The translations under genes and the position numbers were made by a program. A stretch of DNA of 62,692 nt, the filler included. It is 9 parts of 9 records of this genome, joined end to end, with 100 filler letters (N's around TTAATTAATTAA, not from the genome) between each part and the next. Parts side by side here need not be neighbours in the genome. Positions count along the whole stretch, not along the records: positions 47,307 to 57,098 come from SRR31147125_179326; 8 more parts are not named here. One strand, 5' to 3'. Below, in pieces: positions 3,024 through 57,198 of this stretch; position 1 is the first letter of the stretch, and the number at the start of each line of letters is the position of its first letter. The notes beneath the pieces were generated by a model that was given only the letters and a program-made list of their open reading frames with translations, was not told the DNA's origin and did not search any database.

Positions 3024-3208
3024 ATATTCGATTGACGGCTCATTCAAGGTCGTCCTTTACAGGGAATTCACCGCTCCATTAAGATAGAGATGTAGTTGAG
3101 TAGCCGGTTGGGAGTGAAAAGGCAAAAGCGCCCGTTCATGACTCAACCCGAAAGCTGTACCTGACGATAATCGAAGGGTAAACAACTGCCTCTCGGGAGC
3201 AATAATCT

Positions 3209-5211
3209 ATGGCCGCGGACAAAAAACATGGGGATGAGCAAGAACTGGAGCGTTACGGCGTCTGGGTGAAAGCCGGTCCCGACCAGATTGAAGATCACGA
3301 TTCCCAGAGCCTTGAGCTCATGGATATAGAAGACAGCGGCAACGACGAAGTCCTGATCACCGAGGAAGAAGAGATGCTGCTTGGCGAACTGGAAGAATCC
3401 GCTTTACCTGACTTCAGTGATTTTGAGGACTCCTTCGGCGATTCTGAAGATACCGGCGGTCTCGACGAGGAATTCACGATGCCTTCGGATTCCGGCACGG
3501 GCACCGGTTTCTCCGATGACCCCGAATCCCGAGAACTGCTCCACAAGATTGAAGATGATCTCAGCGCGCTCCGGGATGAAATCCGGCAGCTCAAGGAAGA
3601 AATCGCCGGCCTCAGAGTGCCGGGCGTGGCACCTGTTGAAACGGAAAGCAGTGATGCCGGCGGATTCTTCGATGAAGAAGAAGACGAAACCATCGCCCTT
3701 ACCGGCGACGAACTGGACAACATTCTCGACACTGCGGAGATGAGAGAGGAAGTAGCCGAGGAATCTGCCGAGGAGGAAACCGCCGCGGCAGATGACGACC
3801 TGGGCATCGATGATATCAGCTTCGATGACGAGGATACGATCGATCTCTCCGGCGATTTTTCCGACATGGGAGTTGAGGGCCTGGACGATTTCCAGGTTGA
3901 AGAGACTCCGGAAGTCGATGATCCGGCCCTTTCCATCCTCGGCAGCCCGGATGAACCGGAAGAAGCAGGCGACCCCGAAACTCTGGAGATCGATATTCCC
4001 GGACTTGATGAAGAGGTCAGTCTTGAAGATACGGAAGTCGTCAGCATTGACGAGTTGGGTGACGAACCTGAAGCGGCTGACAATATCGAGGAAATCACGG
4101 ACCTGGATGATTTCGACATTGAAGAAATCAGTCTGGATGAAATTGAGGACGCTCACGCGGCTGCTGCCGTGGATGACATCCTTCCGACCGAAGATGAGCC
4201 CGTTGAGGAGATTCTCCTCGATTCCGGCGATGACGTTGTACTAACCGAAGCCTTCGACGGAGAAGATTTCGATGAAGGCGAAGAAGTCGAAATCGACCTC
4301 ACCGAAGAAGAAGACGCTCTGGAAGCGGCTGATGACGCCGACATGCTCGGCGTGGAACTGGAGGATATTTCCCTCGACGACTTCGGGGTTGAGAGTACCG
4401 ATGAGGCCGGCGATGCGCCCGTCAGCGATGTCCTGGCTGAAAGCGACGGCATGGAAGAGGTTGATCTCGAGGAGTTCAGCATCGAAGAGGATGAAGGCGA
4501 GTTCGAAGAGATGGAACTGGACTCCGTCCTGGCCGAAGGCATAGAAGAAGGACTGGGGACGCAGGAAGAACCAGTGGAACTCGCTTCCAGCGATGACCTG
4601 GAAGTGGAAGACCTTGAGATTGAGGAGATCGATCTCGACGTTTCCGAGCCGGAACAGATGGAAGAGATCAGCCTGGATGACGTTGAAGAGATCCCGGAAA
4701 TCGAAGAGATCTCCCTGGAAGAAACCCCGGACATTGAAGAAAGCCCCCTTGAGGATGAACCGGTGCTGGAAGAGATTTCACTGGAAGAGGATATCGAAGA
4801 GCTTTCTCTGGAAGAGGAACCGGAAGAGATATCGCTGGAAGAAGATGTTGCGGATATCACCCTCGAAGAAGTGGAACCCATCTCGGACGACCTCGCCGAG
4901 GAAATCTCCCTGGATAAGGATATCCCGGAGATTTCCATCGATGACGCGATAGAAGAAATCGAAACCGTCGAAGAATTCAGCCTGGAGGAAGAGGAAGACC
5001 TGATTGAAGACCTTGAGATTGAAGTTGAGGACGACATCCAGGTGACCCTCCCCGATGAAGACTTCGATGAGCTGCCGGGAACCGAGGAGCTGGACCTGTC
5101 ATCCCTGGATGCACTGGCCTCCGCCCCGGACATGACCGAAGCGGCCGAAGAAGAAATCACCGAACTCCCTGAAATCGACCTCGGCGATGAAGACGTCCTG
5201 GAACTTGCCGG
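3209..5211 (+). CDS. highly acidic low-complexity protein of spirochaete type, 3'-partial
   Basis: GGGAG RBS upstream. Conserved-looking islands ELERYGVWVK.GP and GFFDEEEDETIALTGDELDNIL sit in an Asp/Glu-rich sequence with many EEISLEE-like repeats. Confidence 0.75.
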
Positions 5212-5311
5212 NNNNNNNNNNNNNNNNNNNNNNNNNNNNNNNNNNNNNNNNNNNNTTAATTAATTAANNNNNNNNNNNNNNNNNNNNNNNNNNNNNNNNN
5301 NNNNNNNNNNN
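5212..5311. other. artificial contig linker (N44-TTAATTAATTAA-N44)
   Basis: Identical 100-nt spacer with stops in all six frames. Genes are truncated on both sides. Confidence 0.98.
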
Positions 5312-8700: not shown

Positions 8701-11700
8701 CACGTTCAGCGTCTCCAAAGCGAAAATGTACGTCACCATTCTTGCAAGTCGACAGTGCGGTAAACCATGGTGTGTGTGTGCGCAGGCTGCTGGTAGACGT
8801 GATCTCGAGTCCGAGCAGTGTGCTCGACGTGAAGCGGTTACACATCTGACAGCGCGCACGAGAGAACTGGAGGATGAGCTATTATCGGCACAACAGAATA
8901 TGGAATCTCTTCAGCACAAAGTGGAAGAAGCACTGAAAGACGAAGAAAACGCAAGAAGTGAAGCGGCAACGGCTAGTTGTGAGCTCAAGGCCAAGTCTCG
9001 CGAACTGCAGCAACTCCGAGAACGAATGGACTCCACCGAAGCCGTGTTGGAAGAGGAACGGCGACAGATTGAACAGACTAAACAAAGCCTGGAAACTCAG
9101 AGGACCGAGTTACAAATGGCTCGGGAGGCCGGGGCCCAGGCACGCACGCGTATGGAGACGGCAATAGCGGAGAAGGAAGCAGCTGAGTTATGGTGCCGAT
9201 CGCTGGGTGATACTGCCGACGAAACACGTGTCCTGGTTGAGAAGCTTCAAGCAGATTTGAAACAAGAACGCGAGGAACATCAGGAGGCCGCCTCTCAGGC
9301 ATTGCAGCGCTTCGCGGCACTCGAGGCGGACTTGTCTGATGCAAAAACGGCTCAGGGTTTGGCGGAACACCAACTGAAAGGAATACGTGAGGAACGAGAC
9401 GTCCGTGACGGAGATTTGATGGATGCCAGGATGCAAATACAGAAGATGGGAGCTGAATTGATGGAATTGAGGGAGGAAGTGCAGATCATGCGAGAACGAG
9501 GGGAGGAATTGTCGCTTAAGGAAGAAATCGGGTTGTTCTACGATCAAATTGTCCAAGGGCAGGAAGAAGGGCCGGGAGGTACTGCCACGAAGATACGAGA
9601 GGCTATGGCCAAGGAACTCTCGTTTCTCTCCGATAAGTTGACCGCACTTGAGGAGGTCAGAGGGGACAAGTCACGAATTGCTACGGAGGAGCACTATCGC
9701 CTTTCCGAGGAACTTGAAACCACACGTAGCAGTCTTCATCAGAGTCAAGCCGAAGCAGAACGCGCCCTCCATGAGGCCAATGCATTGAAAGAGAAAAACG
9801 CAAGTGCGGAGAGTCAAGTTGAGAAGCTCAGGCGAGAATTGGAGGTATGGGTCTCGTGGTCCACATGTATATTCTGATTCTCGTTTTTTCCTCTTGTATA
9901 GGAAACCTCCAGGGCCCATCAGTTGGTTGAGGAGGAGTTGCAACACCAACGTACAGAGTTGCATACAGTATGTGTCAATCTTCTCGCCTCTCAGGAGGAA
10001 GCTACGACCCTTCGCGCCCAATTGGATGAACTTCGGCTCCGAAAGGACGTTATGGCCCTTCAAGGAAGAGCGGCCGACTTGGGTTCCATGGGGGCGCGTC
10101 GTATGGCAGGCGAAATCAAGATCTTGTCATCACGGCTAGTTACCATGGAGGAAAAGAGAAGGCGAGAAGGAAAAGTGCGAGAGGAACACGTATTGGCACT
10201 GCAAAAGGAGATCGAACAACTCCGCAAAGCTCCTGCGCAACAACGGGCAGACCTGCCTGAAGAGGACACCGCATCATCACTCCAAGTGCAGCTTAAGAAG
10301 AGGGAAGATGAAAATGAATCGCTCCGAGCCGAGTGTCGGGCCCTTAAACAACAACGGGACGCCGAATGGAAACAAAGTCTTCGTTTGGCACGACAAGTAC
10401 CCTCGCGCGACTTCCTACGATCTCTGGACGTGTTCCTGACAAAAGAACGCGAACCTTCCCCAGACTACGAAAGACAGCGGCAGGAAAGCGTCCATGTGCT
10501 CGTCGAACAATTTGCTGCATTGAAACGGGGAGATTCCGATATTCCATCCATTCTCGAAGATGCTCGCGACCTGCGTGGACAAGTGGACAGTCTCAATGCC
10601 CGTCTCACTGAGACGTTGCACCAGCTCACTCAGGCCGAAGAGGAAGTCAAGAACAAGACGACAGAATGTGAGGATCTCACCAACCGTGTCCTCCAGGCGG
10701 AGGCACGGGCCAGTACCCTTGAGACCGAGTGGGAAGGGGTTCAAACGGAACTGGAAGTTCTACGAACGCACCAACGTCAGGACAGTGCGCTTCAGGAGAC
10801 AACAAGGGCCAAAGCACAGAGCCAACTTCGCTTGGAGCAAGAAGTGAACACATTGCACCAGGACTGTTCCGAGCTGAAGGAGCGCCTCATGATCGCCGAA
10901 GAAGAACGAGACAAGTTGCAGAAAGAGGTCGAGGTGGTGACACTGCGAGCAACTGAACTAGACGGAGAGCGGAAAGTGTTGATGAAAGAGCGCAATCGAA
11001 TGAAGAAGCAACGGGAAGCCGAACTCAAGAACAGTATGCGGCTTGCAAAGGGGATCTCGTCCAAGGATCTTCTGGGGCAAATTGAGTCCTACATCAATCA
11101 GGAGCGTGAGCAGCTGATGCAGGGAACTGTAGCGAAAGAACACGTTGAATCCATGCTTGAAGAAGAGAGAAGTCGCTACAGGGAAGTTATGAGCCGTAAC
11201 GAGGAACTTGTGTCTGAGAATGGCCGCCTTCGAAAGACCCTTGCAGATCTGAAAGCGGATCTGGAGTCGGAACGTACCGCTCGCGCATCCGATGTAGCCG
11301 CCCTGGCAGATCTACGAACCGGACACGGACACGGAGGAGAGGGTGGTTTGAACGATACGCCTACGGAAGAACGGGCCGCGATGCAATCAGAGTTGAACAA
11401 ATTGCGTAGTGCCATGATTTCCCTGGAGAAGGAAGCCGAGAGAGCTCGGAAACAAAGAGACAAGGAGTGGAACCGTTGCAAGCAACTTTCACGAATTGTC
11501 CCGTGCGTTCTTCTCCCCCAGCGGAATGAATAGCTCACTCATCTTCTTATCCCTCAACAAGATCCTATAAGGTTCTTCAACAAGTCCAGGAGATGCTGGA
11601 TGAAGCCCAACAGATCCAAGACACAGAAGAGCGAAGGGCACTCTCTGTAGAGGTATGAATCCCAGAGAAAACATGTTTCTGTGCCTGAGAATAGTTGGTA

Positions 11701-14951: not shown

Positions 14952-15051
14952 NNNNNNNNNNNNNNNNNNNNNNNNNNNNNNNNNNNNNNNNNNNNTTAAT
15001 TAATTAANNNNNNNNNNNNNNNNNNNNNNNNNNNNNNNNNNNNNNNNNNNN
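14952..15051. other. artificial contig linker
   Basis: N44-TTAATTAATTAA-N44. Confidence 0.98.
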
Positions 15052-20152: not shown

Positions 20153-20252
20153 NNNNNNNNNNNNNNNNNNNNNNNNNNNNNNNNNNNNNNNNNNNNTTAA
20201 TTAATTAANNNNNNNNNNNNNNNNNNNNNNNNNNNNNNNNNNNNNNNNNNNN
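20153..20252. other. artificial contig linker
   Basis: N44-TTAATTAATTAA-N44. Confidence 0.98.
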
Positions 20253-27282: not shown

Positions 27283-27382
27283 NNNNNNNNNNNNNNNNNN
27301 NNNNNNNNNNNNNNNNNNNNNNNNNNTTAATTAATTAANNNNNNNNNNNNNNNNNNNNNNNNNNNNNNNNNNNNNNNNNNNN
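27283..27382. other. artificial contig linker
   Basis: N44-TTAATTAATTAA-N44. Confidence 0.98.
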
Positions 27383-35277: not shown

Positions 35278-35377
35278 NNNNNNNNNNNNNNNNNNNNNNN
35301 NNNNNNNNNNNNNNNNNNNNNTTAATTAATTAANNNNNNNNNNNNNNNNNNNNNNNNNNNNNNNNNNNNNNNNNNNN
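35278..35377. other. artificial contig linker
   Basis: N44-TTAATTAATTAA-N44. Confidence 0.98.
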
Positions 35378-37432
35378 AAAATTAGTTAAGGCCCTTTCAG
35401 TCAGCCCTGCACAGGGCACAGGATCCACGGTTTCGTCGTGGAAAACCAGGGCGATCATGGAGACAAAGCCCCGGGTTTCCCAGGTGCGGCCGTAGGACCT
35501 GAACCGATCCTGCCACAGAACCATGAGATTATCGTCCCTGTCCAATTCTTCCAGCATGGGACCTGTGAACCCGTAGACCGATGATGCCAGAGCCGCCTTG
35601 AGAAATCCCCGGTGGTCAGGCCGGTCAACGGCACAAAGGATATCAAAGAGTTCCCGGGCCTGGTCCGAGTCAAACACAGATCCTGTCTTGGAAAGAAAGG
35701 AGGGGATATTCAATTGGGACAGGGCCTGGTGCACGGCCTCGGCCTGGGCATTGGTCCGGACCAGTACGGCCATGTCTCCCGGCCCCATGGGCGCCTGGCC
35801 CCCGGTTTCCATAAGGCCCGATGCCTCCCGGGTCAGAAGGGAAAGGATGTCCCGGGCCAGAATATGGGGAATGGATGCCAGGGCCGCCCCTTTTTTAATG
35901 CATTTTTTCCGGTCCAGGGGGAAGTTCTCCCGGTTCAAAAAGGAGAAACTTAAGGGGGAAGGGGTTTTCCCTCCCTGACCAGTCGGTCCTGGGCCCCGTC
36001 CGGCGTGCCCACCCGGGTAAAGGGAATGTCCTTGAATCCGAATGGGTCCGGGACCAGGGTAAAGATCTGGTTCACCCCTTCCACCAGAAGGGGCGCGGAC
36101 CTGTAATTGGTGGCCAGGGTAAAAGACTGGGCCGCCGCGGTTGACGCGGCCAGATAGGCGAAGATATCCCCGCCCCTGAAGGCGTAGATGGCCTGTTTGG
36201 GGTCCCCGATCATGAAAAAGGCATGGCCGGTTCCGCCGGGGTGGAAAAAAGGGTGGAAAAATCCGGTACTGGGCCGGGTCCGTATCCTGGAATTCGTCTA
36301 TGAGGCAGGCCCGGTACCGGTCCAGAATGGCCTTTTTTACCCCGTCTGCCCGCGCCCCTGTCAGGGCCCGGTCCAGGTCATTGATCAGATCATCGAAAAA
36401 ACAGGTGGACCGGGTCCGTTTCATCTCTTCCAGAGTGGTGAAAAAATATTCCAGAAACGCCAGCTGGAGTGCAAACATGCTCTCAACCATCTCATTGTAT
36501 AGGCGGAGCAGGTCTTCACAGGCGTCAAAAAAGGGATGGGCCGGAGGGGCCTGCCCGGATTTGGTCTTTGCTTCAATCCGGGTGGATGTAAACTTGTAGA
36601 GGGGATGGCCTTTTTCCGCCATGACAAATACTTCATTTGTATTCCAGGCCGAAAGATCGTTAAGGCAGAGGTCCAGCCAATTGGGCAGGTTCTTTTTGGA
36701 ATAACTGCGCTTATCCACCCCTTTATGGGACTGGATCAGGTCCTGGACAGCCTCCCGTTGAGCGGCCAGAATATCACCGGCCCGGGCTGCCGCCTCTCTG
36801 TAAGGGGTCCAGTCCTCACTGAACACCGCTTTTTCAGGGACGGTCCGGATCCCGGGCCTGGAAACCACCTGCCTGAACCGGTTCTGGATATTCTCAGGGG
36901 TCACCCCTGACTGGTAAAGAAAATTTAAAAATAAGGGATCCAGATCATTGACCCTGGATAAGAAAAAATCCATGACCGTCTGGCTGACAAAGGTCTGGCT
37001 GTCCGTGACCAGCTGGATATCAAAATCCCCTCCGGTCTCAAAGGCATTTTCCCTCAGGGCGGCATAACAAAAAGAATGGATGGTCATAACAGCGGCCTGG
37101 TCAAAGCAGGTCAGGGCCAGGCGGAGCCGCTTGGGGATGAGGCCGCAGTCTTCCCGGCCATTGAAAAACAGGGCCAGGTCATCCTGGGTTTCAGGGGCTT
37201 CCATCTCTTTGAGGCAGGCGGCCAGGCGGGCCCTGATACGCAATTTGAGTTCAGCGGCTGCCGCCTCGGTAAAGGTGACCACCAAAATGGATTCCACAGG
37301 ATATCCCATGGCCACCAGCCTGGCAAAAAGGGTGGTGATGGTATAGGTCTTTCCGGTGCCGGCACTGGCCTCGATCAGGGTGGTCTGTTCCAGATCTATG
37401 CGGAAGGGGTCCAGTTTTTCAGGTCCTTTCAT
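35378..37432 (-). CDS. recB: exodeoxyribonuclease V beta subunit, 3'-partial, two frameshifts
   Basis: Motifs LIEASAGTGKT, VVTFT.AA..EL, TIH.FC, IDEFQDTD; MIGDPKQAIY.FRG.D and L.TNYRS lie in a shifted frame (35950-36213); AVLVR follows. Confidence 0.93.
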
Positions 37433-40400
37433 GGGCCAGGTTCTCCAATAGGGGGGTATAAACGGCAAGGGCGGTTTCCAAAAATCCGGAGGATTTAAGG
37501 GCCTGGGGGTCGGCAAAGGGGTCCTGATCCCTGAACACCAGGGCCGTATACCGGTTCTGGCACTCCCCTGAAACATGGTGACCGCCGTTCCACAAGGGTC
37601 TTACCTTTTCCAGGGCCGTTTCCAATACCTTATCCGGAATGGCCTCCCCAATTTTTTCCTCAACCCTGCCCGGGATCCAGTCGGCATCCAGGGCAGGGAT
37701 ATCCAGGCCCTGGTCCAGAATCACAGCGGCCAGACCATGGGACGGCAGGGGCAAAAAGGGCAGCACACGGTCCTGTCCGGCAATAAAAAGCCGGGCCAGG
37801 GCATGGATATGATCCAGGGCCGCCCCGGCTTCCAGGGGGGCGAATTCACAGGCGGCAGCCGGTTTTCTGTCATCCGGGCCCCGGCCCAGAATCAGGGTGG
37901 TTCCCGGGGGTTTCCCCTGGCTGGGGCCTGCGGCGGAATAAAAGAGATGAAAAATCCACTGGGTCAGCATCCTGGCAGGGCTTAGCTTACTGAATCCCTG
38001 GGCCACCCTGCCCCGGGTATAGATTTCCCCCACCCGCCCGGCTATCCTGAAAGGGCCGGCCTGGATGTCCGCCATGACCGATTCCGGTCTTTCCTCTCCA
38101 ATGGCCGCTTCTGCCAGCGCCTGAACGGGCCGGGCCAGGCCGGCGATCCGGTCCATTTCCATTTTTCCTTTCCGGCCCAGGGGCAGCCGCCCCATGGCCC
38201 GGACCAGGGGATAATTGTCCCCGGGCCGGTCCATGCACAGGGACCCTAAACGGTAAAGATCAAGTCCTGTGACCTGAAAGGCTTCCCTGTCAGGGACCTC
38301 TTCCCCGGGATCCGGAAAGACCAGTCCCAGGGTCCTGGTCATAAATGCCTGGACCGGATGGCGGAAAAATTCAATGAGCCTGGAGACCTCCACCTGAACG
38401 GGAAGTTCCCCTTCTTCAGGTGGAACCGGCGCCTGACCCGGAACAATAAATTGTTTATCCGGGCCATGGAAAATTTTATTTTCCTGCTGGGATACGGCAA
38501 TTCTGCACTGGGCCGCGGAATAGGAAAAAAGGCCGGCCCTGTCCGGATCAAAATAATCCGGACTAAAGGCGTGGAGGGGGTGAAAGACCTGCCATTCCAA
38601 TCCCCCGGGCAAAATGAAGCTTTCCTGTACCGTGTCCATGAGTTCGGCCACAGGGGCGGCGCAGGGGATGGGGGAATTGTCTGAAATGCTCATCCCAGTA
38701 TAGGTGATAATGAGCCGCTGCCGGGCCGAAAGCAGGGACTCAAGGAAAAGATAACAGTCCTCATCCCGCTCCTGCTTGTCCCCGGGCCTGGGGAACCTGT
38801 GAATCAAATCAAAACCCGCAGGCGTGACGGATCGTGGAAACCCCTGCTCACCCATGCCCATGAGGCAGACCAGCTCAAACGGAATGCTTCTCATGGGCAT
38901 GAGGTTGCAAAAGGTAATGCTGCCGGCCAGAAAACTGCCCTGGGAAACGGTCTGGTCCAATTTGGCCTCCACAGCCTCCCTGGCGGCGTCAAAACCGATC
39001 TCATGTTCAAACCCGCCGTTCCTGGCTTCCTGGGCCATCTCGTCCAAGGCCGTGGTCAAAAAGACCAGGTCGCCTTCATTCACCGGGTCCGGGGCCATCA
39101 TGGCACGGGCCATGGACTTAAAACAGACGGCCCATCCGGCCAGGGTCCGGGGCGAATCCAATAGATTGAGAAAATAAAAAAGGGTCTGGGTAAAATGGGT
39201 GAAATTGCCCAGAGTCACGGCATCTGTTCCTTCAAACCCGTCACAGGGAAGGACCGCCCCTGCCAGGTGGGACTCGCCTTCGGGCAGGGCATAGCCGGCC
39301 ATGAGCCGGTCCGTTCCAAAGGCCCAGGTATTTTCCCCAAAACCCTTGCCCACCAGGACCTTACGGTGCGCCTTATCTTCCCCCCAAAGCACCCCTGCCC
39401 GGTCCAGGGCCTGGGCCACCTCTTCCTGGTCGGCCATGGACAGGCCGAACCGGGCCCCGATGGCCGGGGTATGGAGAAGATCCAGAACCCGGGATTTTTC
39501 CAGGCGGGAGGTTTTCAGGTCCAAGATTTTTAAAAAGGCCTCCAGGGTCAGGGATTCGGACCGCTTTCTCCTGTCCGACACCGTATAGGGGAGCCTGGGT
39601 TCCCTGGAGAACACCGCTTCCAAGAACGGGGCATAGGCCTCGATATCCGGCATCATAACAATGACATCATGGGGGTGAAGACCAGGATCCCTGTCAAAGG
39701 CGTCCAGAAGCAGGTCCTTGAGCACCTGGGCCTCCCGCATGGGGGAGTGGCAGGCATGGACTGAAAAAGAGTTATCCCCCGGTGCCACGGCAATGGGCGC
39801 CTCATATCCGCCGGGCCGTCTGTGGATGAGATTGAGGATATCCGACTGGATCACCGAAAGCATGGAGGGATGAGCCCCGTCTTCCCCAAGGCCGGTTGGA
39901 CCGGATACATCCAGTGGATCGGTAAACAACTCCCCGAAATCCTGGTAGTGAAAATCCTCCAGAAGGCCCTGAAACTGCCTGCCGGTGTTGCCCAGGGATG
40001 CCAGGAGGGGGTTGCCCAGGTCAGACAGGTCCCAGGGGTTGTCCTGATCCTGGCCGGGCCCGGCCCCTGATGCCAAAGCCTCTTTATCTGTCTGGCGTTT
40101 GGATCTCAGATCAAAGAAAAACTGGGCACAGGGGGTGAGCAGAAAGAGGATAATCTCCATGGAACCGGCCATGGCGGAAAAGGCATCCAGAAACCTGGGC
40201 GGCAGTGAAGAAACCCCGAAAAGGCTGATCCGGCCTGGCAGGCCCTCTATTTTGCCCCTTGCGGCCCTGGTGGTAAAGGTGTCCAGCCGGGACGAAAACG
40301 GGGTCCCCCGTTTGATCAATTCCCGCCAGAGCCCGGCCTGCCAATGGGCATGGGGCAGATGGCCGCCCCCTCCCCTGGCCGGGCCTGCCCTGCCCATTGG

Positions 40401-40858
40401 GCCAGGATATCCGGACGGTAGACCTGGTAATCGTCAAACACCGAGGCGATCCTGCGGCTCAGCCCCAGGGCCTTGCGCCCGGAAGGATCATCCTGGATAT
40501 AGGCCCGGGGACCGTCCTGATCCATATTCCGGCCCGGGCTTTCATCCTTTGCCAGGAGGATATCCATGAGAGACCAGGCCATGGTTTCCCGACTCAATAG
40601 GGGAAGCAGGGCTGTTTCCCGGGACAAATCCGGGAGCCGGGACATCATCTCTTCCAGGATCTGCCTGGGAAAAAGAAAATTTACATTGGCACAGATGCCC
40701 AGACGCCTGGCCAAGGACGTGGTCAGCCATTGCTTCATCCCCCTGGACTGGATGCCGATGATCTCGGGTTCCATGGGGTTGTCCGGCCCTTGGGCCACCA
40801 GGGTGCACAAAGCTTCCACCAGGTGTTCCATATAATTGCTTTTGATCAGATTGAGCAT
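37419..40858 (-). CDS. recC: exodeoxyribonuclease V gamma subunit, frameshift near 40380
   Basis: Motifs SN..E.L, FD.Y.VYRP, NPLLASLG, HACHSP.RE, VM.PDI..Y.P and PMRSIPF. Overlaps the recB start. Confidence 0.93.
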
Positions 40859-40950
40859 TCTCCCGCTCCAGTTTTAACCCCGGGCTTTGTTACCCTTCAA
40901 TAGTGATACTCTCGTAAAACGTCCAACCGATGGTTAAGTAAAAATTTTCA

Positions 40951-41050
40951 NNNNNNNNNNNNNNNNNNNNNNNNNNNNNNNNNNNNNNNNNNNNTTAATT
41001 AATTAANNNNNNNNNNNNNNNNNNNNNNNNNNNNNNNNNNNNNNNNNNNN
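40951..41050. other. artificial contig linker
   Basis: N44-TTAATTAATTAA-N44. Confidence 0.98.
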
Positions 41051-47206: not shown

Positions 47207-47306
47207 NNNNNNNNNNNNNNNNNNNNNNNNNNNNNNNNNNNNNNNNNNNNTTAATTAATTAANNNNNNNNNNNNNNNNNNNNNNNNNNNNNNNNNNNNNN
47301 NNNNNN
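47207..47306. other. artificial contig linker
   Basis: N44-TTAATTAATTAA-N44. Confidence 0.98.
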
Positions 47307-47316
47307 CCCCCTGCAG

Positions 47317-50300
47317 GATGGCAACTCATGGCCAAGTTTGGACAGGCTGGTTCCATTGCCGCTCTTCCACAAGAAGATTATGCGGATTACTTCGAGCAGG
47401 CACTTTGGATTTATGGCCATGCTCAGGGCACTCCTCTCACACCTGGTGCAAACACTGCCCCTGCATCCTTTGTGATTGAGAGCCATGACTGGAAGGATTT
47501 CTTGGATGAGGGAACAGCCTACAGCCTGCGCCAGAATTTCTGGAAAAAGGAAGCCGAGCATACGGTGGATCTTGCCTTTGACTTTGTATACAACGGCTAT
47601 GTGTGTCAGGTGAGACAGAACACGCCCTCCCCGTCACGTCCATTCACGCCCATTCACTGTTGTCAGGATGTCCCCCCTGAAACGGTGCGGCCGTCCCCTT
47701 CTCCTCAACCGACTCTCCCGTTTTACGAGTCCGAGCGTGCATGGCGTCTTTGGAACCGTCGAATCCTCAAGTCTGGAGATATTTCATGGGACGACTCGGT
47801 GCATCCCACGTATTTCTGGCTGCCCTTCACAAACAAAGTATCAGGGAACGTTTTTACAGGGTGCAATGGATTTGAATTCAGCACAAGCGGGTGTGACATG
47901 GACAATGAGAGCAAACGTCGCCATGGAAACGCTGGCATTATTGCTCGAGAGGATCACTCTCATGTTGCTGCATCGTGGGCTCCGTGTCTTGACCCTATGG
48001 AATCCGCCGGGGATCTTGTGCAAGTCCCCCAGAATATGTCCCTCTACGGCACATCAGGCGATGAGATGACTCTTCTCTATTGGATTCGAGAAGGTGTTTC
48101 GGCTCCTCGTGCGTCAGAGGTGTCGTTTGTGTGTTTGTTTGATCGGTTCACTCATGATGAAATATCGAACATAGTTCCTTGTGTTCCGGTGCCAGATGTC
48201 AACGGAACATGTCAGAATCCACTCGTACGATTCGTTCCAAACGGTACACACGATGTTGCGATTGGTTCTCAGTACACAGGAGAAGGCGAGTTGTCGAATA
48301 TTCTAGATTCTATTTCCTTCACGGCAGAATGGCAATCCCGCACGTTCACGGTCATAAAGGGAACCTTTAGCGTGCCCGAGTGGGACCTGACCATCGAAGT
48401 AACATCAGTAGACGATTTGCTGGCAAACTGGCTGGAACATTGGCATGCCATTAATCTTCATTGGATGAACGTGGTTTTCTCCAGGAATCTCTACAATGGG
48501 GCCGCGTATCTTCTAGATATCCCGGATGGGAATCCACCCGGAAGGACACTGACGGAATTTTCACGGCATGGATGGGGACATTGGATGTCAGAGGGCATAG
48601 AACTTCAGTTTCTGAGTGTAGAGGCCGTGGCAGGTGCAAACCCAGGGGCCTACGTTGATTCAACCGATACAGTTGCCTTCGCCTTCAATGGACCCGTCTT
48701 TGAAGAAGGTCGCCTGCAACGCTTCTACAGTGAACCAAACGACGCTACCTTTGAGGCCGTCATCCGTTGGGGGCTCGTACCCAATGACGGGGGAGGAGCA
48801 ATCCAGGCCTCCGAGGTCCCCGTACTCCTCGAAGCGGTATCCCCACAAGGCGCCTGTTTGTGCGATTCTCTTGTCACTGTACGCCTGGGGGATGGATTTT
48901 CCTCCAATATGAGCGGAATTCCACGAACCAAACTGCAACTCTCCATTTCCAGCATACTTACCGACAACGAGACAGAATTCCATCTCGTGAATCGTCTTGC
49001 ATTCCTCTTTCAAGTCAAGAGCAGTGCGGGAACATCACGATTAGCTCTCCAATGTGGGCAACCTGTTTCTGTTGTGTCTCGAGCACCAACCGGACAATGG
49101 GGAAGGGGTCCGATAGAGTTAGTAGGTGTAAGCGTCCTTCCCGATCCGACAAGCAGTCCTCCCCTGTTCAACCATGGGGATGCACTTCAACTCAACTTTA
49201 GTGGACCTCTCTATGTAACGGAACTGGGACAAAATCTCTCCTCACTGAGTGCGAGTGAGCGAGAACAGCACATCCTGCCTCTTTCGACTGTTACAGAGAG
49301 TATTGTGATCAAGAATGCTTCTATGGATGGAAATGATGTCTTTGCATCTCAAGATGTCCTAGAAATTGCATTTCCCTCCTCCGATATTTGGAATTCTGTT
49401 GTGCAGATCACTTTCCGAATGACTGAAGCCAGTCAGTTCAATAACGGCGACATGACCCTCTACCACGTGATGAATCTCTTCCAGTTCTTTGTATTCCTGC
49501 CAGGCAGCGGACGTGCCGTGGTGGAAGGATACAACTCATCCGAGAATCCTTCCCAGAACTTCGTGCTCGATGTAGGGAATCTCCTTTCATCGAGTCAAAA
49601 GACATGGGGGGCAGATATGCTGATTCTGATGAACAGTGTGGTTCTAATTCAGGGTACGGGGACGGCTGACCTTGAAGCCGATCACGATGGAACCATGTCC
49701 CTGCACTTCAATGCACCTGTCTACGATTTCACGGCAGTCCCGAAGGAGCCCATCACATTCTCTGGGGATCCATTCGCCAACAACCAACTCCTCCACTCGT
49801 TCTTCGATATTGTCAAGTATCAAGATGAAATGGATGTCTTGTTTGATGAGAACACACCAGGAATTGTACTCTCGGGAGAATGGTTGAACACCTACCCCCC
49901 AGCACACACCTCACAATCACGTTCGCTACAGTAGATCGCGAGTCCATCCCCTCGCCCGTATACGAGGAATACCTGAACACAGGTGCGTGGGAAGCATGGA
50001 GATTGTCGTGCGTACCTGACAGACAGATTTTTTGATCTTCCAGGATATTTTGCGTTCAAGTTCCCCGGTACGCGAGCCCTTGGAGCGGGCCTATCTACAC
50101 TTGAAGGGACTTATAATTTGCTTGGGCATTGGGGGAATGGTGGATCCCTGTGCATCCGTGCCGTGGAGGCCCGTGGACAAACAACCCAAGATGAAGAATT
50201 CTCCGAGGGGGATTCTGTGCGGATCACGTTTGATGCAATTGTCTATAACTATCAGATCCGAGGCGATCCCGGTAGAAGACGTCTTCCGATATTCACGGAA

Positions 50301-53300
50301 TCACCTACAATCACTTCCGGCGAGGCACGCAAGTTCCTTACCTTCAAAGACAGTACCGAGAATAGCATAGGAACGACCCTTCCCTTCTCGGCTCACTGGG
50401 GGGAGTCCCAACTGGAATTGGAGATGGAAGCATTCTCAATCGGGACCGGGGCAGAAGTGTCCTTGGAGGAGTATGATGCACTGAACCGGGGGGATTTCTA
50501 CCTCAGAATCGGCAATCCGAATTATGGGCTCGATGCCGGCATTATTCCGTGCTCTGGAACACAAGCAACACAAATAACTCAGGTAAACACTCTCGAAGCA
50601 CTCTCGGCCAACGTACAAGCACCGTCGGATGGAGGAGAGCCTTGGGGATCGGTTGTGAATCCCATACCGACATTCATTGCAATCCCTCGACCTTCAGACA
50701 CCAACCCCGATACCCAATTCAATGAGGGGGATACAATTGACGTGATCTTCACAGGAGTGATCTATCTTAAGGTAATGGGGTCGCTGTTGGAGCGAGGTGC
50801 ATTACTGGACTCCAACACCACCAAGACGCTTGTCCATTTCAAAAAGAATGATGGAGGTTGTGAAGAATTCACGACGATTGCCAGCTACAGTGATCTACAG
50901 CTCACAATGTCTCTTTCAACGGACAATCTGCGTCGCATTCATCTGGAAGTGGTTAACGGATCCCATGCCTCTCTGCCATTATTCTACGCATTCGACCGAT
51001 TGCGATTCTCCTCTCGCGTCGTCTCTACACCCAACATCGAAGTTCTGTCCGGATGGCAAGCTGGACCGCACGGATCCGCCTTAGGATTGCATATGAACTC
51101 CTTTGAACCCATGGATCCCTCCAGCAAGTGGGGGACCCTCTGGAGCTTGATAACATGACAGTAACATTCCAAGGCGGCTCGGGGTGCAGGCAGGTGGCGG
51201 ACGGAGATACAATCACACTCACCTTTGGCGGGCCGGTGTACGAGTGGATTGGAGGGGAGGATGACCCCATCCCCCTCACGGGCAGCATGGAGTATGCAGA
51301 CCTGAGTCGATTCTTGTCCGTGATGGGGACGGGCCCCTTCAATGGCCAGACTCTCAGTCCGAGTGTCACATTCACAGGAAATTGGATTGATTTAACAACT
51401 TTGCAGTTAGTCTTCGATCCGAATTCAATTTCTGATGCACCGAATTCCTCGTTCGAAATGCTAAATCAAGAACAGTTTCGCATTCAACTCCTAGAAAGAC
51501 CGGAAGCTCCAAGCGCAGTAAGTCCCTATCTGGGAACCGGATTTGCAGGAGAAGGAGGCACCACTTGGCTCAATTATGGTTCGCCCCTGGCGCCAAGCCC
51601 CACCGGTTCTTGGGGAACAGAGAATCTGACGGTGTTATACTTCCAAACCTATCCCTACGAGGGAACGGATTCTGACTTTGGCCCTGGAGATACCATGATC
51701 CTTGTCTTCTCCTGTTCCGTGTACGATTCAGAGTTCGGTGTGCCCAGCGCCTCATTCGACGATTCCTTCGAGTTTCAAACCATGGAAGGGGATTCCTTTA
51801 CGCTTTCTTCTGCCAGTGTAGTGGCCTCGATTCAGTGGACCGATCGTCACAGTACTCTCACTGTCACTGTTGAGGAAGTGGATCCCGCCCATTCCCATTT
51901 TGATATCCTCAACACCTTCAACTTCTCACTCTCCCCCGTTCTCTGAGAAGTGGTCACTCAGGAGAAGATCCCCTCACAGGTGCGCGTTTCGTTTCGTTTC
52001 GTTTCGTTTCGTTTGGCAAACACACAGTGCATAACAGAAACCATCTATCCCAACACGACCAGCCGATGGGGCAAACCGCTGGTTTTGCAAACGGTTCTCC
52101 CATCAAGTGCGAATCATAATGATGCGAAATTCAGTATCGGTGATACATTCTGTCTGCAATTCAATGGCAAGATCTACTTTCGTGGGGCGTGGGGCGCCTT
52201 CCTTCCCCTACCCAACCGTACAACAGAGGCCCTTCGACTCCTCGCCCAACCCTACTCGAATACAACCATCAAGTCTGTCGAGTTTGAGGAGGTGAGGTAT
52301 GAAAAACACGGATCCGTTCTGTGGCTGCGTGTCACCCGTGCACCTGACTATGGCGAGGAGTTTCATGCCATGAATTCCTTGATGTTTTGGGTACAAGTTG
52401 TGGGTACCGGCTCGATCCAGTTGACATCAGGACGCAACGAACCCGCTAACGACGACATTGTTCCCTGTGGCATAATTCCCACATATGGATGGGGGTACCG
52501 TCTTCTTGTAGAGAGTATCCTTGCGGACGACGTGGACAACAGAGATGGTTTCTTGTCTCCCCTGGATCTGGTCACCATCCAATTCAACGCACCAGTCTAC
52601 TATGATACGGGTCAGTCTATTCCCGCGTACACAATCCCTGTTGCGTTGCCCGATAAGGCTGAAATCGATTCTTTCCTATCGTTTGTGGTGGAGGACGTGC
52701 CCCTGCTATTGGACCCGGCTGATGGATGGAACTACACGGGGGAATGGTCCTTCAACTTTGAGTCTCTCATTATTACGTTTCATTCCGTGGCGTTTCGTAC
52801 AAATCCCACCTACCAGACACTAAATTCCGCTCTGTACAACTCTCATCTCAACATGTCGGTTGGGAGTCCCACCAAGAAACTCACGGTGGGCTATGCCGTT
52901 GGTAACGTTCCCATTGCACTCGAAGGAGAACGAATTCCCGTTGAAGGCCACTGGGGAACCATACAACTTGCATTCTCGCGGCCTGATTCCATAACTGCCT
53001 ACGTCGCAGAGTCGCTGGCTGTGAGGATTGAGGACAAGGATGTAGGGGAAGTCGACTCCCTTCTGCTTCAAGTGGACAATTGCAGAGATGGAGTGGGTGT
53101 TGTGGATTCCCTGATCGTTGTCATGGAGCGAATCCACCCAAACGCATCATCCTTTGAGGGTTTCTTTGGGACTGTAGAATCGGGGAACACCGAGAAGAAC
53201 ACGTCTGACAATATCCTCGATGTGGTCCATGGCGACTCCCTCCGCATTTCGTACAAGGATCTCGTGGCTGAAAAGCTTATTCAGAACAGTGATGCCACGA

Positions 53301-56300
53301 TTGTGGAACACCTCGGTTCTCGTCAGGCAGATGGGCCCATCAAGCTGCGTGTGACAAGTTCTCCTCTGAATTTGGAAGTCGGTGTACCTGAAACGATTCT
53401 GGTGAAGTTCTGGGTCTCGACGGGGGACGTGGAGATCGTTGAATTGGTGGAGATGACCTCCGGCATCTTTGAGGGACAGATTGCAACACACTATTCCGAT
53501 CCGCTCCCTTCCGTTCTCACGTACGACGGCCTGGTACAGATCGGAAACGGAAACACCATTACAGCAAGTGTCAACAATGCCCCTGTGGGTGGATCCATCA
53601 CGTGGATTGCAACAGCAACAGATGGAAGTTTCTGGTTTGTGGGGGCCCGCCGTGTAGGGAGCACTCTCACACTGCAGATCGTGGATGAGGATTTGAATGT
53701 CCATTCGAGCGCCGTAGACACCTTCCTCATCAATGTAACCAGCTACTGGGGAGACTCCAACGTGAAAGACAGCATACAAGTTGTGTTAACAGAAACAGAG
53801 GTGAATACGGGCGTGTTTGTGGCGTCCATGGTGACCGCTCTGTTCCCTATTCCGCCGATCCGCCGCCCTGTCGAGAATGTCCTCTACGTCAATCATACCG
53901 ACGTGATCACGACAGAATACCATGACACATTGACACGGAATGGGGAGGATCAAATCCTTGTGCGCAATATCACAGTCCTGGCAACGACAGCGCGCATGAG
54001 CATCAACACAAACGATGTATGGTACCTTGGTGCTTCCATTACAATCCGTATCGATGATTGGGACGCAAGTCTTGCGCTCTTCTGTGCGGATACAATCTTC
54101 GTGGATCTCTTTCGGAATGGGAGCAAGAACACAGAGTACATTACCGTGCAGCTTGAGGAGACGGGTTCTGACACGGGTATCTTCGAGGTCACTCTCCACA
54201 CGGTGTACGGTCCGCACCCGTTCACGCACGATACACTCTTTCTCGACACCGATGACCATGAAAGCCTGATCCTTGGCTACAACGAAACGATGACAGACGT
54301 TGGACAACCCACATCGGATACAACCTTTTATCCGACTCATCCCTCGTCCCCTCCAGTCGGGAGTTTGCTGACGTGTCGGGGCGGTCACAGCATTTTTACG
54401 GAATGGAACATCACGCTGACCATGATGAACCTCTGCGCCACAGAGGTGAGAGTGCTTGCGACGAACATTGATAATGGGGACTGGGAGATTCTCCGTCTCA
54501 CGAACACAAGCGCCCATGTGTACGAGGCACATCTCACAACAACCTACGGAAACATAGCTGTCTCGGAAAATGGTGCACTCACGGCACACGATGGGGATAC
54601 CGTGGAAATTACAATGTGGCGAACAAGAAGAATCGCCAATGATACTGATTTGGACATCTCGATTACACTCACCGCAAGGGATGCCAACTTCACCTTGGGT
54701 TATCTTCCTTTCGTTGGGGTGCCCGTGTTTCTTTACCTCGAAGACGTGGATGAAGACACGATTCCTGAAGTGGCAGACACGATTTCAGTGATGGTTACAA
54801 ACATCCCCTCCGGAGAGCGTGCCACAGTAACAATGGAGGAGAGTCCTATTGATTCAGGTATCTTTCGTGGAACTCTGAGCACGGTTTTTCGCACAGATCA
54901 CTCCGAAGTGCCGGCGAGTGATGATCTTCTCATGTTCGTCAAGGAGGGAGATCTGCTTCAGTTCACCTACGAGGATGTTGTTACAAAGAATGGATCGCGT
55001 TTTGTTACCAGAACACACACAATTCACTACACGAATTCACCATCTCTCGTCCATATCCACGGATTGCGAGCTGTTACCAACCCTCTGACAATTCGTGTCG
55101 AAGATCTCACGTTGTCGGGTGCTGGATACATTCGAGTCTGTGTGACGGATAGGACCAACTGTGAAACGGAGCATTTGTTTTTGTGGGAACAAGACGCCCC
55201 GTACTTGGGCACATTCTTAGCCACCCTTCCCACTATTCTGGATGTACATGGCACAGGAACAGGAAACGATAACGGAGTTCTAGGAGTGACGAATGCAACT
55301 GTGATTCTTGTTCAGCTCAACACGATTGCAAATGATACAATCGAAATGAGTGCAACCACAGGAATCTTACACGGTGTAGGAAGTCAAGTGGGGGAATCTA
55401 TTGCGATAACTGTTGAAGATATTGACGAAAATAATGATCCCAATGCTCCTGACCAGATAGAGGTTACGGTTCAGTGCCTGACATCGGGAGAAAGTGAGAT
55501 GATCGTTTTGAAAGAGACAGGTAGGTGGTTGGTTCTTTTGCTCTCTTCTGATTCATGTTTGCACACAAATAGAATCCCACACGGGTGTTTTCACGGGGAA
55601 CTGCCCAACCATCTACCGTGAGAGTTACATTCTTCCCGATCCTATCAACAACGATGGAATCTTGCACGTGCGGGATCAAGACACGGTCAAAATCACCTAT
55701 AGGGACTCCGTGGATGCTAATGCTGCAACAGCACTACGAGAATGGAGCACAACCTTTGCCAACACAGAAGGAACGCTGCTGTTTGATGGCACTCCCTGGG
55801 TGGGAACAGAATTACAGATTCGGTTTGTGCCAGATGCCCGACCATCACACCTCGTACACCTTCAAACCCTTGTGACCAATCAAGAGAATGGCGACTTTGA
55901 ATTTCTTGATCTCACGTGGACGGATTGGGAGAACGAGTTCCGTGGTTCTCTTCTTACGGTGTATGCTCCGTGGAACCACTCCCTAGATGATTCGGTCAAT
56001 GTACAGGAGTGGGACCAGGTTTGCGTCCAGGTGGACAGCTTCACAAGCCTCACCTACACAGCTCGGAAGATTCCAGACACATTTCGAGAACCTGTATCAG
56101 TAGAATTTGAGCACGAGCACGCTTCCGTCGGACATTCGATTGTGCTTACGGCACAAATCACACATAATTTGGTTGTATCGGAACAAGAACGGGTGGAAGT
56201 TCTTGTTACAAACGATGTAACACGGGAATTTGAGTACGTTCGGCTGGTGAAACAAGATGCAGAAGTCGGATTGTATGTTGGAAGTCTTCCTACTGCATTT

Positions 56301-57098
56301 AGCGAGTCCAGAGGGCCTGATTTGGACGGTATAATGATGGCACTGGGAGGCCATACCCTTTTCGCACAACTTTCAAGGGTTGTATCCCAGGAAGACCTCG
56401 TAGAGATGACTGCTGTGGATGCTGAGATTGACGTACCAAACAACCTGCGACTGGGAATGTTTCTTGCCCTTACCATTCGCGACGTGGACCTGGATCTCCA
56501 TATGGGTCTAACCGATACGGCCAATGTGACTGTGACCGATACCGCAACCTACGAAGTGGAAGAAATCTCTCTGACGGAAATAGAACCAGGGGTCTTTTAC
56601 GGTGGCATCTTTGCTGTTGCGTATCATTCTCATTCTCATTCTCCTCGTGACGGTTTTCTCGCTGTCGACGTGAACGATGACGTTTGTGTGTCCTTCCTCG
56701 ATGAAATGACAAGCATAGGACCCAATACAACCCCTAGTCAGGCGTGTTTCACGGTGCAGTCGTTGGAGGGAACCGGAACAGCACCTGCACGTTGGTCCAT
56801 TGGGTCATCGATTCCCTTGTCCTTCCAGGTTGATTCGGCCTGTGCAATGGACCCGTTGAAGGTGGATACGATGGCCGTACTCGTGGGTGGGCCAGAGTAT
56901 CGATGGTCGGCTTATGGCATTCTGACCGAAACAAGTGCAAATTCGAGTCATTTTCAGGGAGAGGTGCACACAGCTCTGGGGAGCGGTCCACCTCTTTCGT
57001 CCCTGAACGTTGTCTTTCTGAATCGTACCGATCAGCTCACTGTTGTCTGGGGATCTGAGATGGAGGGTACCACCAGCACGGTGCTAATGGAATCGGGG
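47317..57098 (+). CDS. giant eukaryotic repeat-containing surface/secreted-type protein, partial at both ends, spliced
   Basis: Five long same-strand ORFs join into one frame via GT-AG introns (47610-47666, ~49983-50043, 51980-52037, 55521-55572) and single-base homopolymer slips (~49895, ~51132, ~51935). Contains about 9 WG..GD...F...VY repeats, then about 12 L.ET...G.F.G repeats. Confidence 0.8.
51986..52014 (+). repeat. (GTTTC)n microsatellite inside intron 51980-52037
   Basis: About 6 tandem GTTTC units directly after the GTGCGC donor. Confidence 0.85.
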
Positions 57099-57198
57099 NN
57101 NNNNNNNNNNNNNNNNNNNNNNNNNNNNNNNNNNNNNNNNNNTTAATTAATTAANNNNNNNNNNNNNNNNNNNNNNNNNNNNNNNNNNNNNNNNNNNN
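57099..57198. other. artificial contig linker
   Basis: N44-TTAATTAATTAA-N44. Confidence 0.98.

Follow-up and report, generated by a model that had tools for sequence, protein, structure and literature searches.

A giant repeat protein gene, probably of a microbial eukaryote, with one series of tandem domains homologous to a module of prokaryotic surface proteins

The stretch of DNA analysed here (the window; 62,692 bases) consists of nine contigs, of mixed bacterial and eukaryotic origin, joined end to end. The eighth of these is filled by a fragment of a single gene encoding a giant, acidic repeat protein. One series of its repeats, termed type B below, is homologous to a domain of prokaryotic surface proteins. 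We consider it moderately probable that the protein as a whole is an extracellular product of a microbial eukaryote and that its type B module came from a prokaryote. The gene does not lie on one 62-kb scaffold but on a single 9792-bp contig between N spacers (Table 1). The separators on either side of this contig are artificial, so that the genes adjoining it in the window tell nothing about its true genomic surroundings.

Twelve type B copies are arranged in tandem within one very large, presumably extracellular, protein, and share the motif D.D.N...DT..V.V...GE.E.v.L.ET...TG.F.G..T. A hidden Markov model (HMM) built from six seed repeats detected six further repeats in the spliced protein, with independent E-values (i-E) of 1.2e-8 to 2.7e-4, and none in the three N-terminal open reading frame (ORF) pieces (1547 aa; best i-E 0.92). 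The HMM of alignment A1, which holds 11 repeats, recovers 12 domains at 61.5-95.2 bits, starting at residues 351, 461, 568, 692, 811, 921, 1041, 1146, 1266, 1375, 1483 and 1599 of the spliced ORF. This count, and the spacing of 105-124 aa, bear out the roughly 12 tandem units of 100-120 aa that had been described from the sequence alone, and the five repeat motifs quoted at that time all occur in the translations of 51947-55621 and 55512-57146. Mutual identity among the type B repeats of the window is ~24-34%.

The eighth repeat is interrupted by a 52-nt GT-AG intron which begins with GTAGG and ends with ATAG. With the A1 profile, from which the interrupted repeat had been excluded, we scored 2728 deletions of 20-109 nt near the site, all of which keep the frame open. 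Excision of the intron yielded 71.9 bits, the highest score of all, tied only with two shifts of 1-2 nt which result in an identical protein. The second-best GT-AG candidate reached 55.3 bits, and the unspliced halves of the repeat scored 33.0 and 30.1 bits. Once restored, the repeat aligns over 91 aa, at 46% identity, with a domain of the metagenomic protein P0064. An intron of this length within the motif had been proposed originally, and at the level of sequence we regard it as established. It had also been said to join two long ORFs; the join itself holds, while the extent of the gene was understated, as three more interruptions follow from the analysis below, at least one of them resembling a homopolymer indel.

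Kinship of the type B repeat was sought by searching 1.84 billion representative proteins with the A1 profile. The profile matched 2970 proteins at E<=1e-3, of which 1057 pass E<=1e-10 and 206 pass E<=1e-30; the strongest matches are 1000-7800 aa long and contain as many as 46 repeats. The clusters of 30 matches were inspected, and an organism is named in six of them, in each case a bacterium: Psychroserpens (a protein with a type IX secretion system (T9SS) type B sorting domain), a Bacteroidota metagenome-assembled genome (MAG), Hyphococcus, Patiriisocius, Nitratireductor and a Gammaproteobacteria MAG. In a blastp comparison, the 1191-aa ORF aligns with the Hyphococcus protein P0008 at 26.6% identity over 892 aa (E 2e-36), and identities of individual window repeats to bacterial repeats range from 25 to 46%. 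Alignment of A1 with A3, a set of nine bacterial repeats, by hhalign gave a probability of 99.6% (E 1.3e-23) end to end over 89 columns. When the core pattern of A3 was scanned across one genome per prokaryotic species, 438 occurrences were confirmed among the at least 600 matches listed, distributed over many phyla; the 80 loci which we kept derive from Flavobacteriaceae, Gamma-, Alpha- and Deltaproteobacteria, Verrucomicrobiota, Nitrospirota, Acidobacteriota, Chloroflexota and others.

Curated families and other collections contributed little to this picture. Pfam returned no family at E<=1 for all five ORF pieces and nothing better than E 0.02 for nine consensus-like bacterial repeats, and NCBIfam returned none at E<=0.01 for three window pieces, so that the cut-off of NF052345, a family discussed below, was not reached. 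A word-index search with the repeat region gave no match, although such blanks are weak evidence; two scans of metagenome contigs confirmed no relative, and a viral-contig scan gave eight pattern matches, none of them confirmed. The sole sequence relative in the PDB is 8c8k, the S-layer protein of Nitrosopumilus maritimus, matched over residues 1518-1594 by both A1 (E 1.5e-6) and A3 (E 2.9e-9). An AlphaFold2 (AF2) model of one window repeat, with a predicted local distance difference test score (pLDDT) of 82.8, contains six strands, and 8c8k_A is likewise the top Foldseek match to it (template-modelling (TM) score 0.61, probability 1.0, 25% identity, E 8.5e-3). As profile, PDB and fold matches all point to prokaryotic surface proteins, the kinship with such proteins that had originally been put forward is confirmed. 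On the evidence of the profile comparisons and a predicted fold, the type B unit is a beta-sandwich of ~90 aa, a domain widespread in giant bacterial surface proteins.

The organism to which the gene belongs was approached through composition. Tetranucleotide profiles of contig 8 correlate with those of contig 9 (r 0.82) and contig 2 (0.64), and with those of the other six contigs at 0.21-0.48. Relative synonymous codon usage (RSCU) shows the same tendency, with r values of 0.61 to the Hobbit/BLTP2 exons of contig 9 and 0.75 to the coiled-coil gene of contig 2, as against 0.24-0.35 to the bacterial contigs 4-7. GC content at third codon positions (GC3) is 0.53-0.54 in contigs 8, 9 and 2 and 0.65-0.74 in contigs 4-7, and the element TTCTGATTC is common to the 52-nt intron and an intron of contig 2. 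Hobbit/BLTP2 is a eukaryotic family of bridge-like lipid-transfer proteins; the three exons on contig 9 cover positions 954-1057, 1143-1215 and 1245-1308 of its profile (E 9.6e-7, 1.5e-7 and 1.1e-4, respectively), indicating a multi-exon gene. The k-mer comparison suggested with the original prediction therefore groups contig 8 with the two intron-bearing eukaryotic contigs and apart from the bacterial ones. Because of the intron, and because composition and codon usage match contigs carrying the multi-exon Hobbit/BLTP2 and coiled-coil genes, the eukaryotic origin proposed at the outset gains support, and contig 8 is very probably a fragment of a eukaryotic nuclear gene.

Nearly all of the plus strand of this contig is open, in five pieces (47307-49931, 49977-51155, 51107-51943, 51947-55618 and 55512-57098). 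Our working model excises four short stretches and places an X at each of three 1-nt breaks; it comprises 3196 codons without a stop within the contig, and thus does not reach the >3200 aa first claimed for the protein. Beyond the 52-nt intron the frame is broken (a) by in-frame stops at 49932 and 49974, (b) between 51107 and 51155, where frame 0 gives way to frame 2, and (c) by an in-frame TGA at 51944-51946. Four donor-like CAGGTRVG sites occur on the plus strand (47607, 49980, 51977 and 55518), three of them exactly at frame breaks. The stretch following the first of these sites, a candidate in-frame intron of 57 nt, contains no stop, and the reading frame can therefore not test it.

At break (a), the peptide of the frame shifted at the C6 run resembles the consensus of the type A repeats described below, although HMM separation is negligible (0.9 versus -0.5 bits). 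The candidate 40-nt intron restores the frame only in combination with the suspected indel, and seven single GT-AG solutions need no indel. For break (b), a 1-nt miscall in the G5 run is the preferred reading, since the WG start and the first strand of a type A unit are then kept; of its eight GT-AG alternatives, one of 62 nt would remove the WG strand. At break (c), the extra C found in a contig of the public DNA run X1, together with removal of the candidate 58-nt intron, restores the frame; excising the 90 nt of 51938-52027 instead would require no indel. Run X1 carries 14% of the words of the stretch, in contigs which are at least 99% identical and patchy (13 of 30 bins). A (CGTTT)x6 microsatellite occupies 51985-52014, inside the candidate 58-nt intron. 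Each junction admits 7-19 frame-open single GT-AG solutions, profile scores separate the models by at most 2.8 bits, and the putative intron and indel models at breaks (a)-(c) are ambiguous. The position of the breaks, at or just after runs of C or G, suggests homopolymer under-calls in the assembly, and homopolymer indels in this contig would mimic stop codons.

Upstream of the type B series stand nine type A units, for which hhalign shows no kinship with type B (probability 3.8%) and a word-index search with their alignment, against longer targets, no relatives. An AF2 model of type A is poor (pLDDT 56). Its only PDB link, a weak one, is to an RTX ice-binding adhesin (4p99), whose extender repeats it matches at E 1.5e-5; we rejected an assignment of type A to RTX-adhesin extender (BIg) repeats, as this E-value sums four identical repeats which have i-E values of ~5 each. 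Protein-atlas neighbours of the N-terminal part are nameless clusters, the type A query having been at low recognition. The first ~420 residues (47307-48572) precede all repeats and have no Pfam match, and the 302 aa beyond the candidate 57-nt intron (47667-48572) have no PDB match; this part could be a non-repeat head region.

The model protein is strongly acidic, with a net charge of -250 (D+E 13.0%, K+R 5.1%), and contains 40 N-x-S/T sequons compared to 26.6 +/- 4.5 in shuffles. No transmembrane-like segment was found within the 3196-codon fragment. In the explanation which we propose, a nuclear gene of a microbial eukaryote would encode at least 3196 residues, nearly all in beta-rich repeats, nine of type A followed by twelve of type B. 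The protein would enter the secretory pathway and be N-glycosylated, and outside the cell its rigid domains, strung one after another into a long chain, would act as a coat or an adhesive fibre, as in its prokaryotic relatives. This extracellular role is likely by analogy, the relatives being either S-layer subunits or giant adhesins that are secreted. The module would have entered the eukaryotic lineage from a prokaryote long ago and, once captured, would have gained spliceosomal introns and host codon usage while diverging repeat by repeat.

Transfer from a prokaryote to a eukaryote is the origin towards which we lean, because the family is broad in prokaryotes and no eukaryotic name was encountered among the matches. 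Any such transfer would be ancient, given the low identities, the host-like codon usage and the fact that 11 of the 12 repeats are closer to outside repeats than to their sister repeats, a comparison biased by 1246 outside against 11 inside comparators. A single clade for the 12 window repeats was not rejected (approximately unbiased (AU) test, p 0.64), and the constrained tree lay 11.65 log-likelihood units above the free search. This result fits one acquisition followed by internal duplication, although the long branches are subject to the same pull of the model.

Several observations weigh against this interpretation. Contig 8 has no eukaryotic marker, and its tie to the eukaryotic contigs is compositional rather than physical. 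The public sequencing runs which carry the stretch amount to one DNA run and no RNA run, so that no RNA evidence exists for any intron. The three further frame breaks require indels or ambiguous introns, which means either an error-prone assembly or a damaged gene. Foldseek with the repeat model returned no match at E<=1e-3. In the 72-row domain tree, 38 of the 69 inner branches were drawn open, and no donor can be named. As most of the 2970 profile matches carry no taxonomy, eukaryotic relatives may be hidden among them. Lastly, both ends of the protein lie beyond the contig, a signal peptide or anchor is not visible, and secretion, anchoring and the surface location are for this reason inferred.

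Some of these points would equally be expected if the type B domain were old or common among eukaryotes, through vertical descent or spread between protists, with no acquisition from a prokaryote. Identities of no more than 25-46% to bacterial repeats, codon usage that is fully that of the host contigs, the great age implied by the (biased) closeness of 11 repeats to outside ones, and the scarcity of taxonomy among the matches are all compatible with such a history, as is, weakly and at low recognition, the presence of nameless haptophyte clusters among the atlas neighbours of the N-terminal part. The names which could be recovered were nevertheless bacterial in six of six cases, and the word-index, two metagenome and one viral scans show no close relative; we thus consider this history unlikely, though it retains an appreciable share of our belief. 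The four interruptions within 9.8 kb could also indicate a decaying pseudogene, in which case the frameshift near 51130 and the three stops (49932, 49974 and 51944) would be genuine damage, and HMM tests cannot separate intron-plus-indel models from read-through. Yet ~3200 codons are otherwise open, an independent DNA contig has an extra C which removes the 51944 stop, three of the four plus-strand donor-like sites coincide exactly with frame breaks, and the breaks lie at or just past C/G runs as homopolymer miscalls predict, which makes decay improbable.

A bacterial or archaeal giant adhesin gene whose apparent introns are assembly artefacts would account for the overwhelmingly prokaryotic membership of the domain family, and both the bacterial contigs in the window and the indel-type errors in contig 8 lend it some credit. 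It is difficult to reconcile, however, with a 52-nt insert which has exact GT-AG ends and whose removal precisely restores a held-out domain, with tetranucleotide and codon usage unlike those of the bacterial contigs and like those of the intron-bearing ones, or with the lack of a close relative in the prokaryotic genomes and metagenomes scanned; we rate it as very improbable. Some giant viruses of protists carry spliceosomal-type introns, and giant repeat proteins and bacterial-like genes occur in giant viruses, so that a virus infecting a protist might carry the gene. None of the eight pattern matches in the viral-contig scan was confirmed, however, and the composition matches contigs with cellular eukaryotic genes, leaving this the least probable of the alternatives by a hair. 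We return, then, to a eukaryotic gene with a module of prokaryotic origin. A more specific version, in which the microbial eukaryote uses a captured and expanded archaeal or bacterial S-layer domain to build very long surface fibres or a glycoprotein coat resembling a prokaryotic S-layer, is a long shot; if it were true, a eukaryotic cell covering would be made of a prokaryotic cell-envelope module.

Known systems provide several points of comparison. The N. maritimus S-layer protein NmSLP (Nmar_1547) has ten domains in 1734 aa and forms a hexagonal lattice, residues 1518-1594 corresponding to the ninth, membrane-proximal Ig-like domain (PMC11153153). The tETxxxTGiFeG motif recurs in NmSLP, which is, like the window protein, an acidic tandem array of Ig-like domains; it is also N-glycosylated, as is predicted for the window protein. 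It is, however, the product of an intron-less archaeal gene, whereas the window gene is split by introns. Where NmSLP has ten domains, no fewer than 12 such repeats follow nine unrelated units in the window protein, over a length of at least 3196 aa.

The bacterial giants P0005 (Psychroserpens), P0008 (Hyphococcus, Ig-like) and P0020 (Patiriisocius, beta-strand repeat) carry the same domain in long tandem arrays and are very acidic (D+E 13-21%, K+R 0.6-1.9%); the window protein is also acidic and poor in Lys and Arg. Their repeats are near-consensus and encoded in single uninterrupted ORFs, whereas those of the window have diverged far more from one another, and at least P0005 carries a bacterial sorting domain. 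P0020 and P0028 match the Kustd1514-family anammox S-layer glycoprotein model over their repeats (NF052345, PMC5088730; E 8.7e-44 and 1.5e-16, respectively). The type B domain therefore also occurs in a bacterial S-layer family, although these bacterial matches score far below the family cut-off (149 versus 1400 bits) and the window pieces give no match. The domain is thus widespread in bacteria and part of an archaeal S-layer, yet has no model in the copies of Pfam and NCBIfam which we searched.

The BspA-like proteins of Trichomonas vaginalis consist of leucine-rich repeats. They are described as prokaryote-like surface repeat proteins which a protist acquired through lateral transfer (PMC2843621, PMC4053834), and the case is similar in kind to ours in that a microbial eukaryote possesses a surface repeat protein of prokaryotic type. 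The present example differs in its beta-sandwich repeat and in being a single giant gene fragment. Surface repeat proteins of prokaryotic type are thus already known from protists; here, a probable further one is built from an S-layer and adhesin domain. Outside contig 8, our searches found the type B domain in prokaryotes only, no literature search for eukaryotic occurrences having been made. If host and surface location are as we propose, the gene would represent a clean case of a cell-envelope building block which crossed between domains of life and was domesticated with introns, host codons and sequons, and it would open a way to study the contact between an uncultured protist and its environment.

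Table 1. Coordinates of the giant repeat gene and of other features in the window (a slash marks a splice boundary).
Feature	Position	Strand	Details
Contig 8	47307-57098	+	9792 bp; occupied by one gene fragment that runs off both ends
Type A repeats	48573-52951	+	nine units of 109-175 aa; alignment A2; WG start, GDt.tl.F.gpvY motif
Type B repeats	52997-57068	+	n=12, ~90 aa each; HMM; 105-124 aa spacing; predicted beta-sandwich
Intron, 52 nt, phase 1, GT-AG	55521-55572	+	ACAG/GTAGGTGG ... CAAATAG/AA; inside repeat 8
Candidate in-frame intron, 57 nt	47610-47666	+	CAG/GTGAGA ... TGTCAG/G; splice-site resemblance only
C6 run, suspected missing base	49895-49900	+	would move frame 0 to 2 before the stops at 49932 and 49974
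Candidate intron, 40 nt, phase 1	49983-50022	+	ACAG/GTGCGTGG ... CCTGACAG/AC; tail GACAG
G5 run at shift from frame 0 to 2	51130-51134	+	suspected 1-nt indel
C-run before TGA 51944-51946	51932-51937	+	contig of public DNA run X1 has one extra C, depth 2.7
Candidate intron, 58 nt, phase 1	51980-52037	+	ACAG/GTGCGCGT ... CATAACAG/AA; tail AACAG
Hobbit/BLTP2 exons, three (contig 9, 57199-62692)	62135-61383, 61624-61160, 61005-60739	-	collinear profile matches
Artificial separators, N44-TTAATTAATTAA-N44, n=8	5212-5311, 14952-15051, 20153-20252, 27283-27382, 35278-35377, 40951-41050, 47207-47306, 57099-57198		

The remainder of the window is of mixed character. Rfam and tRNA scans across its whole length gave no match, nor did a word-index protein search, against longer targets, with a Hobbit exon of contig 9. 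Contigs 3-7 contain bacterial-type ORFs, including RecC, a UvrD/RecB-like helicase, PAS, a PPDK-like protein and ETF-QO. Contig 6 (35378-40950) encodes the bacterial RecC and the UvrD/RecB-like helicase on its minus strand, and contig 7 (41051-47206) a ThiI/NFACT-R_2 protein as well as the ETF-QO, truncated by the contig end; GC3 values of these two contigs are 0.66-0.74 and differ from that of contig 8. Long ORFs with no Pfam family at E<=1e-5 were noted at 3206-5209 (contig 1, 668 aa), 9902-11530 (contig 2, 543 aa) and, on the minus strand of contig 3, 18867-20150 (428 aa). The plus strand of contig 2 (5312-14951) encodes a very large coiled-coil protein in which a unit around K(R/Q)QRDAEWKNSMRL recurs and for which no Pfam family passes the cut-off; its gene is interrupted by GT-AG introns of ~55-60 nt with pyrimidine tracts.

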